From: a virus
Taxonomy: Duplodnaviria; Heunggongvirae; Uroviricota; Caudoviricetes
Length of the DNA stretch: 47,442 nucleotides
IMG/VR virus record: IMGVR_UViG_2913112809_000004
Coordinates: 1 to 47,442 of that record
Direction: 5' to 3' (one strand)
Position numbers: made by a program. Below, in pieces: positions 30,001 to 33,000 of this stretch (positions are counted from its first letter, which is position 1; each line of letters starts with the position of its first letter).

Positions 30001-33000
30001 TAAAAAACAACATCCCATCGAAGGAATCCGCAAATGCCTTTTGTGTGACATAGTCTGATATGAAAAGCGAAGAATTAATGTACGGGAATAAGGATTACCA
30101 GAAATTCAGATTAACTTTCCTGTTTAAACGAGAAAAATTAATTTATATACTTTTTGCACTTCCTGAACGGGGGGGAACGGAAATTCGTTATGTTTCACGG
30201 ACTTTGTCCAGCGACCTTAATCCGACGGTCGCGTTTTTTTTTCGTCATATTCATCGTTGACTTACATGGCATTGCCACACGGACATTATCAGTGTCCGTG
30301 TATTTTTTTGAATTCAACACAAAAAAAACCGCCTGGTGCGGCGGCTGAACAATGCTGAAGATGAATCATTTTTATTGTAGTGAAATTGAGATGTTGTGGA
30401 CTTCCCTGAATATCTGACTTTATGCCTGATATTGTGGTTCCAAAAACAACAATGTAAACCACCCTCAATACCGGGGAACATCTCTTTGGTGTTATTTACA
30501 ACACCGGAATGATGCATTTCCGACTCTCCAAAGAAACACAATATTTCTACCGAAAATACACCATTCCGCTATTGTAAAATAACAGCGCAAACCACTGACT
30601 AGCCAATTACAAATCGGTGTTCCTGTTTCCTGAGCAATGTTTACTCTTCATATGAGTTCTTGTCGGGGAATAAAACCACTCACCCGGAAGACAGACGTAT
30701 AATAACAAGGAATAAAATCACTTCAACTGTAATAATCTGAAAAATGATTCTTGCCACATGAAAACACCCACCAACCGTCCATTACCACAAATAAAAAAGC
30801 CTTCACCGCGTCGCGGTTTTCCATTTTCTTTACTTCTACAATAGCCTTACGGGTTTTCTTTTTGAAAATCCCAAACATCGTGAATTTTCCTTTTAGTGGG
30901 TGAGCCTCCGCCCGGGGTGACCAGTCCACAGAGAAAGTCACACTGATCATCCCGTAAGCTTACCCCTGAAAGGTTCTGTGGTTTTTGATCCGCGCCGGGC
31001 GTAGCGCAAAGAAATGAAATAAGCCTTATCTGAAATTAAGGTTAATCTGAGGATTTAAACCATTCTAAATGCTTAGTAGTATAAACATGCCTATTGAAAG
31101 AGGCAGATACTAATCCTTCTTCGCGGACCTTGTCCCGCGGCTTTAATCCGACAGCCGCGTTTTTTTTGCTTGTATATTTCCAAATGATGCAAATATAAAA
31201 GGCTCACCGAAGCGAACCTGATTCAAGCGTACTTGCTGCTACAGCAGGGCTATAATACCCCAACCACATAACGCCATGTGTTCTTTTCTAATGAGTTGGT
31301 GATGGTTTTATGCAAGCAAAAAAAACCGCCTGTTAAGGCGGTGGTCAAATCAGTAAGTGCTGAAGAGTATTATTATAATATAGGTGAGGTGTCGGGTGCC
31401 TCCCGAAATATCTGACATTCCATCAGATACTGTAGTTTCCCCGCTAAACAACCACTAAAACCACCCCCGCACATGGGGTTCACCTCATTTTGTGATGTTA
31501 ACAACATCGGGATAGTGCATAATCAGCCCCTGCCAGGAAATATCAAAAATCCCACTAATAATGCACTATCCCGATAGTGTCAAAAAACACAGCACTGAAA
31601 CTATAACTGGTCTCCGTTATAATTCGGGGGAGCGTTAAAGGAGTATACGAGACCTTTCCCCGCGAGAAAAAACGCCAGTGCTGAAAAACCTGTGCCTCAT
31701 TTGTTTTGCTGGAGCGGGTAGCGGGAATCGAACCCGCGTCATCAGCTTGGAAGGCTGAGGTAATAGCCATTATACGATACCCGCATATGGTGCCGACTAC
31801 CGGAATCGAACTGGTGACCTACTGATTACAAGTCAGTTGCTCTACCTACTGAGCTAAATCGGCATTATTTCCTCAGACAGGAATATATCGCAACCACTCC
31901 CCCTGAAGAACTGCGGCAAATAATACGTTTAAATAATAAAACTGCAATACACCATAACGTCAAGTTTTGTAAAGTTATTTTTAGATTTCCATTTTGTCGG
32001 CTTTGTATATAAATTTAAAAACAGTTATAAATATGCACAAAATATATTTTATACAACAATTTAATCGCGCATTTTTTAATCAAGCTTCAGAAATAAAAAA
32101 ACCCGCCTGTGGCGGGTTTTTAAGTTCACGTTTCTGGTTAACCTCGCGATACAGCTTTGCGAAGCGTAACTGAATTGAAGCAGCTTATTGCTCACTTTGC
32201 AATAGTTTTTTTTGTGCCGTGAACATTGGTTTATAAAGCATAAATTCAGCAATCATCAGCCATTGATCGATACGACGTCGACAGGTAATTAATGTCCAGT
32301 CAGGATGATTTTCATTTAACTGCTCTGCCATTTTCAGTTTGCTCATTCCCCGCCCTTCATATCGTTGTCGGAGGATGCTAATTAATCCCGGATACTCGAC
32401 CAGCACTTCGCTAATTACCCGATCAATACATAACGCCTCGGCATCAGTACAATGAGACAACCAGCTTTTCTGCTTACCGTCGAGCATTTCCCGCAAAAAT
32501 GCCTCCAGTTCCGTCTTATCAATCCCCGCTTTTTTCATCCTGCGCAGAACTTCATTGATGGCTGTTTTCGTCAATTTTTTGGATGCCAGCAACTGGTTAA
32601 ACATATTCCCCGTCTTACCGCCGCCAATATACGACCAGCGCCCCCACATACGCAGTTTTCCCTGAATCCAGACACTTTCCAGCGTGGTGAGACGAAGGTG
32701 TTCCCCGCTTTTTCCTGTATTTGTTGGGTAAATCATAAATAACCTTCCTTTCTCCAGATTTCTTGTGTGCGAAAAACACCTTCTGCATGCATCAGGCGTA
32801 ATTCTTCTTTGGTGTAATCGCTGGTTTTTACTCTCCCGTCGATTAAATCGTGGCATGAGCTACAGGCAATTGCAGCCTGCATATCGTGTGGCTTTGTCGC
32901 TGTTCCACACGTCCCCGCCAGTCTGTAATGCGCCAGCACGGAAGTTTCGGGATTGTGATTGCAGTAGCCAGGAATTCTGACCTGACACATCTGGCCCCGC

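Follow-up and report, generated by a model that had tools for sequence, protein, structure and literature searches.

The stretch of DNA analyzed in this study (hereafter the window; 47,442 nucleotides (nt), positions 1 to 47,442 of the IMG/VR virus record IMGVR_UViG_2913112809_000004) is an LT-II-converting lambdoid (Rac-like) prophage, whose late genes are encoded on the minus strand. Between the end of its Q-like late antiterminator gene at 32185 and the start of its first holin gene at 29960 there is a gap of about 2.2 kb, and the holin gene is followed, also on the minus strand, by a second holin gene, a GH108 endolysin gene and the LT-II A and B toxin genes. With a Q-family gene, a promoter-proximal terminator and co-oriented late genes downstream, the region exhibits the organization of a Q-dependent lambdoid late operon. 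The original prediction, which had been made from the sequence alone, described the gap as an unusually long, terminator-rich late leader containing only two tRNAs and one open reading frame (ORF) of 51 aa. The size of the gap, the tRNAs and the ORF were found again, but the gap also holds two modules of convergent RNA genes (Table 1). It appears probable (approximately 0.7) that the interval consists of the two tRNA genes and of two diverged two-gene small RNA (sRNA) modules, each comprising an STnc100-like RNA from the late strand and a convergent plus-strand sRNA, which lie in the LT-II late operon and were joined by recombination.

Table 1. Features between the Q-like gene and the first holin gene of the window, listed in the direction of late transcription (R1, covariance model; A2 and A4, alignments; L numbers, comparison loci; see text)
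Feature	Position	Strand	Evidence and details
Q-like late antiterminator gene	32185..32745	-	Pfam DUF1133 (E 1e-104) and Phage_antitermQ, 27.6 bits (cut-off 26)
Near-invariant block of ~60 nt directly after the Q stop codon	32130-32190	-	Alignment A4; flanks of relatives only ~70% identical
tR'-like intrinsic terminator	32097..32121	-	11-bp stem followed by T-run; block and hairpin kept in 6 loci (A4)
Putative promoter-like element upstream of tRNA-Thr	31920..31947	-	TTGCAG-16-TATTAT; TTGCGA-16-TATTAT in relatives (A4)
tRNA-Thr(TGT)	31788-31863	-	ARAGORN; Rfam tRNA (tRNA-Thr and tRNA-Gly: 72.3 and 65.6 bits)
tRNA-Gly(TCC)	31710-31784	-	ARAGORN; Rfam tRNA (bits as above)
Late-strand structured RNA, copy 2	31318..31590	-	Rfam STnc100 34.5 bits (sub-threshold); R1 108.7 bits; covariation
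Parts of late-strand copy 2	5' hairpin 31498-31583; multibranch core 31381-31492; variable linker 31343-31380; terminator 31325-31342 + U8	-	
Extra terminator-like hairpin, spacer between the convergent genes of copy 2	31200..31219	-	Terminator scan
Plus-strand sRNA-like gene, copy 2	31054..31168	+	Promoter TTTAAA-17-TAGTAT 31054-31082; RNA ~31088-31168; A2 and consensus fold
51-aa ORF, N-terminal remnant of a TerB-family gene	30723..30878	-	First 27 codons TerB
Putative promoter-like site	30699..30726	-	TTGAAG-16-TATTAT with TG extension; ~110 nt upstream of late-strand copy 1
Late-strand structured RNA, copy 1	30320..30586	-	blastn to copy 2 E 3e-27, to L003 E 5e-48; R1 84.4 bits
Parts of late-strand copy 1	5' hairpin ~30490-30584; core 30383-30490; linker 30347-30382; terminator 30327-30346 + U8	-	
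Second terminator-like hairpin, downstream of plus-strand copy 1	30277..30301	+	11-bp stem followed by T-run
Plus-strand sRNA-like gene, copy 1	30123..30244	+	Promoter TTTAAA-17-TATACT 30123-30151; RNA ~30158-30243; A2
Terminator-like hairpin directly upstream of the holin ribosome-binding site	29984..29999	-	Terminator scan
First lysis gene, holin (Phage_holin_8)	29571..29960	-	Pfam; gene table of the near-identical locus L011

The two modules, termed copy 1 (next to the holin gene) and copy 2 (next to the tRNAs), correspond to the repeat that the original prediction had described as a diverged duplication of about 1 kb. The motifs on which this description was based are present at both places (A8-ccgcc...ggcgg at 30321 and 31318, tgctgaag at 30353 and 31358, aatatctgac at 30409 and 31406), and pairwise alignment of the segments near 30300 and 31300 with blastn revealed extended homology (30320-30589 against 31317-31594; 66% over 280 nt, E 3e-27). 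As this similarity reaches far past the terminator hairpins, it does not merely reflect generic hairpins. A second homologous block, which is absent from the earlier description, was found at 30087-30251 and 31018-31178 (64% over 168 nt, E 6e-11). The repeat unit therefore comprises two blocks of together only about 0.5 kb, not 1 kb, and its period is 926-997 bp. While the feature itself, previously placed at 30300-32184, is real, its left edge lies further out, at about 30087, with an additional late-strand terminator at 29984-29999.

The abundance of terminators in this region was also found again. A consensus scan of both strands of 29900-32300 yielded 14 terminator-like sites, compared with 2.7 ± 1.8 in shuffled sequences, and at least six hairpins on both strands had been predicted. 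The sites show the form of intrinsic terminators, i.e., a G + C-rich hairpin followed by a U-run on the transcribed strand, with U8 tails at 31318-31325 and 30320-30327 and T8-9 tails at 31160-31168 and 30233-30243. Yet, the flagged terminators are mostly the 3′ ends of RNA genes, and a repeat unit is built like a pair of convergent RNA genes, whose structure is conserved in many prophages through compensatory changes, and not like a segment of one leader. The distance between Q and holin is also not unusual, as it amounts to about 1.3 kb in a related prophage with one module (L003), 3.3 kb in UMNK88 and 3.8 kb in prophage PP2 of enteropathogenic E. coli (EPEC). The interval can thus fairly be described as a string of small RNA genes, a fairly ordinary and partly known feature instead of a strange leader.

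The late-strand RNA has a length of about 270 nt. The consensus fold calculated with RNAalifold from a full-length alignment of 11 diverse homologs (A1) starts with a 35-bp hairpin at the 5′ end, which is followed by a multibranch core with GAGGUG/CACCUC as closing helix, by about 50 nt of unpaired, A/U-rich linker and by a terminator. In 17 of its 72 pairs both sides are changed, and 94% of the paired cells are indeed able to pair, compared with 41-52% when the partners are slid by one to three columns; none of 500 shuffles reached the observed values. As the 5′ hairpin holds 79 G-U cells, its pairing drops from 94.5% on the late strand to 76% on the opposite strand, and this bias argues for an RNA with both arms made from the late strand. 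A candidate promoter inside the apical part of this hairpin (TTGATA-16-GATTAT in copy 2) was rejected for the family in general, as it is not conserved in A1 and as the G-U bias shows that both arms are transcribed. The minimum free energy (MFE) of copy 2 is -100.4 kcal/mol (z -6.4), with an MFE fold that equals the consensus fold, and that of copy 1, the most diverged family member seen, is -84.2 kcal/mol (z -5.4). Across 63 distinct full-length sequences, collected from IMG/VR loci and from the other comparison loci, the scaffold is conserved and the linker falls into a few discrete sequence classes. A shared linker motif, CUUCAGCA, was considered as a seed with a target inside the window; however, only one other complementary 8-mer site was found, which is within chance expectation.

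Copy 2 matches the Rfam family STnc100 (RF02076) over its full length with 34.5 bits (E 3e-5), the gathering score being 47 bits. PasD2 of EPEC is below this threshold as well (41.4 bits). Detection by covariance models also works in the reverse direction: a model of the core (R1), which was built from the window's family only and whose E-values are rough as its calibration was short, detects canonical STnc100 loci (Rfam 123.6 and 79.8 bits) with 37.9 bits (E 3e-10) and 23.3 bits (E 2e-5), respectively. In both RNAs a closing helix encloses hairpins, among them the CGGGAGGCACCCG stem-loop, and a linker and an intrinsic terminator come next. A full-length model alignment compared with the consensus fold confirmed this core structure for copy 2; in copy 1 the last hairpin is degraded. 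STnc100, which is known from prophages of Salmonella and E. coli, is, like the window's RNA, located in the late region of lambdoid prophages (PMC12370729; 10.64898/2026.05.13.724894). Unlike STnc100, however, the window's family carries the conserved 35-bp 5′ hairpin, which is absent from the two canonical STnc100 loci folded here, usually follows tRNA-Thr and tRNA-Gly, and has dissimilar linker sequences. Taken together, the sub-threshold Rfam match, the detection of canonical STnc100 by R1 and the long 5′ hairpin identify the late-strand RNA as a diverged, hairpin-extended relative of STnc100, and more distantly of PasD, which is not a member of STnc100 by the Rfam criterion.

STnc100, PasD1 and PasD2 have been described as structurally related prophage sRNAs, typically encoded between Q and the lysis genes, and a common ancestry of PasD and STnc100 has been proposed (10.64898/2026.05.13.724894). 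The Pas RNAs of EPEC are Hfq-dependent and have partners identified by ligating and sequencing interacting RNAs (RIL-seq) (Pearl Mizrahi et al., PMC8550237). PasD1 and PasD2 of EPEC E2348/69 resemble the window's RNA in being structured late-strand sRNAs that are encoded downstream of Q and whose single-stranded seed directly precedes the terminator. The window's RNA was confirmed to be encoded on the late strand of a lambdoid prophage, with Q on one side and the lysis genes on the other. PasD2 shares with it the sub-threshold STnc100 match mentioned above. In contrast, no blastn match was obtained in the EPEC locus (L002), PasD is directly preceded by a promoter and lacks the long 5′ hairpin, and the window's linkers do not contain its seed UGUGAG. 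Elsewhere in the window, a third element with weak similarity to STnc100 was observed, at 42366-42558 (+) in an intergenic leader on the early side, where it follows a terminator-like hairpin at about 42325-42369; it contains CCUGGAGGCACCAGGCACC and scores 37.1 bits with the Rfam model (E 2.8e-6; again below 47) and 13-16 bits with R1.

The second gene of each module is located on the opposite strand. It has a sigma-70-type promoter of its own, and its predicted RNA (about 85 nt) begins with a 5′ hairpin, which is followed by a C/U-rich stretch that is single-stranded, by a GGACCUUGUCC hairpin (GGAC(U/C)UUGUCC) and by a terminator with a T8-9 tail (U8 in copy 2). In an alignment of nine plus-strand copies (A2), the promoter and its upstream region are conserved, and three hairpins are present; compensatory changes are seen in the terminator as well as in the 5′ hairpin. 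Upstream of the -35 element, a stretch of 45 nt (31018-31062 and 30087-30130; AATAAGACTTATCGAAAATTAAGGTTAATTTGAGGATTTAAACC) is more conserved than the RNA itself, even in the E. coli K-12 paralog described below, and includes a near-palindrome, AAATTAAGGTTAATTT. As the conservation exceeds that of the RNA and coincides with this near-palindrome, it suggests a candidate regulator-binding site.

No match of the plus-strand RNA to PasA, PasC or any Rfam family was found, and an assignment to one of these was rejected. In prophage PP2, the late strand encodes PasD2 and the opposite strand PasA (tables in PMC8550237), and PasA and PasC adjoin the holin gene (10.64898/2026.05.13.724894). The anatomy predicted for the window's RNA (copy 1) is the same, i.e., a terminated RNA of about 85 nt that is antisense to the late operon, just upstream of the holin gene and downstream of a PasD/STnc100-type gene. 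Sequence similarity to PasA and PasC was, however, not detectable (including by blastn against L002), the hairpins differ, and only the window's RNA is linked to a paralog in the E. coli core genome. It was also considered whether the C/U-rich stretch might pair with the late-strand linker, with one RNA acting as a sponge for the other. This was rejected, as the duplex energies in seven cognate pairs were no better than those of shuffles, except for one, and cognate pairs were no better than non-cognate pairs.

The core-genome paralog is located between yodB and serU (E. coli K-12 NC_000913.3, about 2,043,024-2,043,182, plus strand; L097 2025-2183). It could be read over its full length, with the same upstream region, a TTTAAA promoter, a GGACUUUGUCC hairpin and a terminator, and 5301 of 5426 complete E. 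coli genomes contain a match of about 89% to the 3′ half. The paralog lacks an annotation as well as an Rfam match, and a literature search, which was partly swamped by hits to "serum", found no sRNA between yodB and serU. As serU is a phage attachment site, the paralog may be a fixed prophage remnant.

A duplication in place was the explanation originally suggested for the repeat. The late-strand copies are, however, only 63% identical to each other, while copy 2 shares 93% identity with the module of UMNK88 and copy 1 shares 72% with that of strain 200177 (identity matrix). The sequence between them includes a TerB remnant and about 200 bp of unrelated sequence, an arrangement that does not agree with a tandem duplication. 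The remnant is the 51-aa ORF, of which 25 of the 27 N-terminal residues are identical to the TerB N-terminus of L004 and which has no Pfam match. At the DNA level, 30799-31025 is 83-88% identical to TerB genes, and the homology stops at about 30799, which marks a recombination joint. In addition, the holin leader (29900-30047) is about 92% identical to those of L001 and L004 and resembles loci in which TerB and DUF3927 genes precede the same holin gene. Each copy is closer to modules of other prophages, and the two are separated by a truncated TerB gene; the pair is therefore a recombination mosaic and not a duplication in place. In the simplest reading, one recombination replaced most of a TerB-DUF3927 cassette by a segment with a second, already diverged module.

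Outside the window, the double arrangement was found in L011, L048 and L090; it is 99.9% identical in a second NCBI assembly, and in two IMG/VR contigs the TerB remnant is even more decayed and the modules are 95-97% identical, with a middle part of only 80% identity. As the second assembly and these two contigs carry it, the arrangement is not an assembly accident. Tandems that arose independently are found in L032, with two family copies, in E. coli CEC15, with a family member and a canonical STnc100, and in phage SerU-LTIIb, with two modules. In the latter (L007, KU052038; 1101-2456 and 3028-4127), tRNAs, a module and holin1a are followed by tRNAs, a module and holin1. This different duplication in another LT-II prophage indicates that the late leader is a site of recurrent rearrangement. 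In CEC15 (L006), the family member (2418-2604) precedes the canonical STnc100 (2893-3168; Rfam 79.8 bits) on the same strand, there are no tRNAs upstream and the module directly follows a tR′-like terminator. Tandem homologous genes with conserved scaffolds and diverged single-stranded regions are also characteristic of the sibling sRNAs OmrA/OmrB, PrrF1/PrrF2 and the Qrr RNAs. The window's siblings differ from these in having been joined by recombination between prophage alleles and not by local duplication.

The module is common in E. coli prophages, where it normally occurs once, either between tRNA-Thr/tRNA-Gly and the holin gene or between tRNAs and a TerB-DUF3927-holin cassette. A strict motif scan identified the core motif in 81 IMG/VR loci, most of which are close relatives, and 78 of them contain a single module. 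The convergent plus-strand motif lies within 700 nt of the late-strand RNA in 56 of the 75 loci with enough flanking sequence. Among GTDB species representatives the core motif, an exact and strict pattern, was found in Escherichia ruysiae only, which amounts to little taxonomic breadth. In two comparison loci, genes annotated as "hypothetical protein" overlap the RNA module (L005 3128-3448; L008 2897-3022 and 3130-3447), and these annotations are probably spurious. The late-strand RNA of one of them, ATCC 8739 (L005), is truncated.

Several observations weigh against reading the interval as two modules of sRNA genes. The folding z-scores of the plus-strand RNA are unremarkable (-0.2 and -2.0), and no convincing conserved sigma-70 promoter was found directly upstream of the late-strand 5′ hairpin in alignment A3, which exhibits a weak -10-like TATGAT/TTATAA and no -35 element. 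The Rfam threshold for STnc100 is not reached by copy 2 (34.5 versus 47 bits), copy 1 has no match at E ≤ 5, and R1 yields a weak 9 bits for PasD2. The most conserved hairpin of the family, that with CGGGAGGCACCCG, is degraded in copy 1 in the R1 alignment, and this copy may be decaying. Furthermore, it is by analogy with characterized relatives that we infer transcript ends, Hfq binding and targets for the window's RNAs. The lack of a conserved promoter would also fit with a late-strand RNA that mainly acts in cis, either as a processing or stability module or as a terminator that conditionally controls whether the lysis and toxin genes are reached by read-through. The same applies to its position, which is always on the late strand, with Q or the tRNAs before it and the lysis genes after it, to its perfect 35-bp hairpin, which represents an RNase III-type duplex, and to the STnc100-like element at 42366-42558 in another operon leader. 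Nevertheless, a mainly cis-acting role appears unlikely, as PasD and STnc100 are reported to be discrete and abundant RNAs, with PasD being Hfq-dependent and having RIL-seq partners (PMC8550237; 10.64898/2026.05.13.724894). Moreover, the terminator is strong and constitutive in form, no alternative antiterminator pairing was seen, and variation in discrete classes, as exhibited by the linker, is what would be expected of a seed region.

It is very unlikely that the interval is a single long untranslated late leader, which arose from an in-place tandem duplication of about 1 kb and whose hairpins act as attenuators holding the lysis and toxin genes off until Q acts. Such a leader would be in agreement with the real repeat, the enrichment of late-strand terminators and the co-orientation of the downstream lysis and toxin genes. 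It does not fit, however, with the limited homology per period (about 0.5 kb), with the higher identity of the copies to other prophages (72-93%) than to each other (63%) or with the TerB remnant between them. Furthermore, half of the conserved anatomy, including a promoter and a terminator, is on the opposite strand, covarying structure is conserved well outside the terminators, and 78 of the 81 IMG/VR loci have a single copy. That the repeated units encode small proteins is extremely improbable, even though both copies are overlapped by ORFs (33-75 aa), the module carries annotations of hypothetical proteins in L005 and L008, and some alignment columns are covered by ORFs in most sequences. 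When the longest late-strand ORFs of copy 1 and copy 2 were compared, no protein similarity was found despite 66% DNA identity, which makes coding unlikely. In addition, indels are present in alignments A1 and A5, the substitutions in helices are compensatory, and the 51-aa ORF is a gene fragment without a Pfam match. The reading of the interval as two tRNA genes and two sRNA modules is thus preferred here.

According to this reading, the window's RNAs would probably accumulate in the lysogen as discrete sRNAs ending at their own terminators. Directly before the 5′ hairpin no convincing conserved promoter was found, a conserved promoter-like TTGCGA/TTGCAG-16-TATTAT element precedes tRNA-Thr and there is no strong terminator from tRNA-Gly to 31342; late-strand copy 2 is thus probably co-transcribed with the tRNAs and cut out of the precursor, possibly at the 35-bp hairpin. 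RNase III is known to cut duplexes of this kind and may act here. For copy 1, which has no tRNAs upstream, the promoter-like site at 30726-30699 might serve as start. In the manner reported for the Hfq-bound PasD and PasA, the RNAs would then probably act in trans on host or prophage mRNAs via their variable single-stranded stretches, and the seed for such targets would, as in PasD, be the variable linker that directly precedes the terminator.

For the late operon it had been proposed that Q-modified polymerase has to read through all terminators to reach the lysis and toxin genes. Several late-strand terminators do lie between Q and the holin and LT-II genes, and the genes are co-oriented, while read-through itself is plausible by analogy, as the mechanism of lambda Q is known and the gene order is consistent with it. 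After induction, Q-modified polymerase would pass tR′ (32121-32097) and the terminators at 31342-31318, 31219-31200, 30346-30320 and 29999-29984, which would lead to expression of the holin, endolysin and LT-II genes. In lambda and the Shiga toxin (Stx) phages, Q antitermination as well as tRNA and moron genes in the late leader are well established. As in these phages, the Q gene of the window is followed by a short leader with a terminator, by tRNA genes, by accessory genes and then by the lysis genes, with a toxin under late control. The LT-II toxin of the window is, however, encoded after the lysis genes and not before them. The plus-strand RNA is perfectly antisense to read-through late transcripts. 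It is conceivable, although quite unlikely as a whole, that the module is a dedicated late-operon control unit, in which RNase III cleavage at the 35-bp hairpin frees the STnc100-like RNA from a precursor (tRNA or late transcript) and the plus-strand RNA, by pairing with read-through late transcripts, silences leaky holin and LT-II expression in lysogens; E. coli would then also have domesticated a plus-strand RNA of this kind at the phage attachment region of serU (yodB-serU; about 98% of genomes).

Some further features of the interval concern its expression. The near-invariant block after the Q stop codon (32130-32190), which precedes the tR′-like hairpin, presumably constitutes the late promoter together with the Q-loading and pause region; -35/-10, Q-binding or pause elements could not be assigned within the block in alignment A4. 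The promoter-like element upstream of tRNA-Thr was not listed by the promoter scan, as its -35 element TTGCAG matches at three of six positions. Between tRNA-Gly and the long hairpin (31595-31709, minus strand) there are two smaller hairpins, whose pairing is kept through sequence changes in relatives (e.g., CUCC...GGAG and GAGRC...GYCUC) and which may be processing signals of a tRNA-sRNA precursor. Upstream of the Q region, the window contains a hok/sok type I toxin-antitoxin locus (34305-34632, minus strand; Rfam sok 97.4 bits; 50-aa Hok ORF at 34305-34457). The LT-II toxin region (27769-28554, minus strand, and downstream) encodes a toxin that is identical in two NCBI assemblies. Terminators or tRNAs of the interval are not mentioned by Jobling and Holmes, 2012 (PMC3252337).

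The occurrence of sRNA genes in lambdoid late regions, the relation to STnc100 and PasD, and sibling copies are already documented, and nothing in the interval is surprising in kind. As far as could be found, the conserved 5′ hairpin with its tRNA linkage, the convergent plus-strand family and the yodB-serU paralog appear to be new. A puzzling terminator-rich leader is hereby resolved into concrete RNA genes directly upstream of lysis and LT-II enterotoxin genes, and the STnc100/PasD group gains a hairpin-extended, tRNA-linked subfamily that the Rfam threshold misses. The interval also illustrates that prophage mosaicism can assemble sibling sRNA copies, and it brings to light a plus-strand sRNA-like family that lacks annotation and of which a paralog is present in nearly all E. 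coli genomes as part of the core. Should these RNAs target host mRNAs, or late transcripts arising from leaky expression, lysogeny would thereby be connected with host regulation and with the expression of the toxin.

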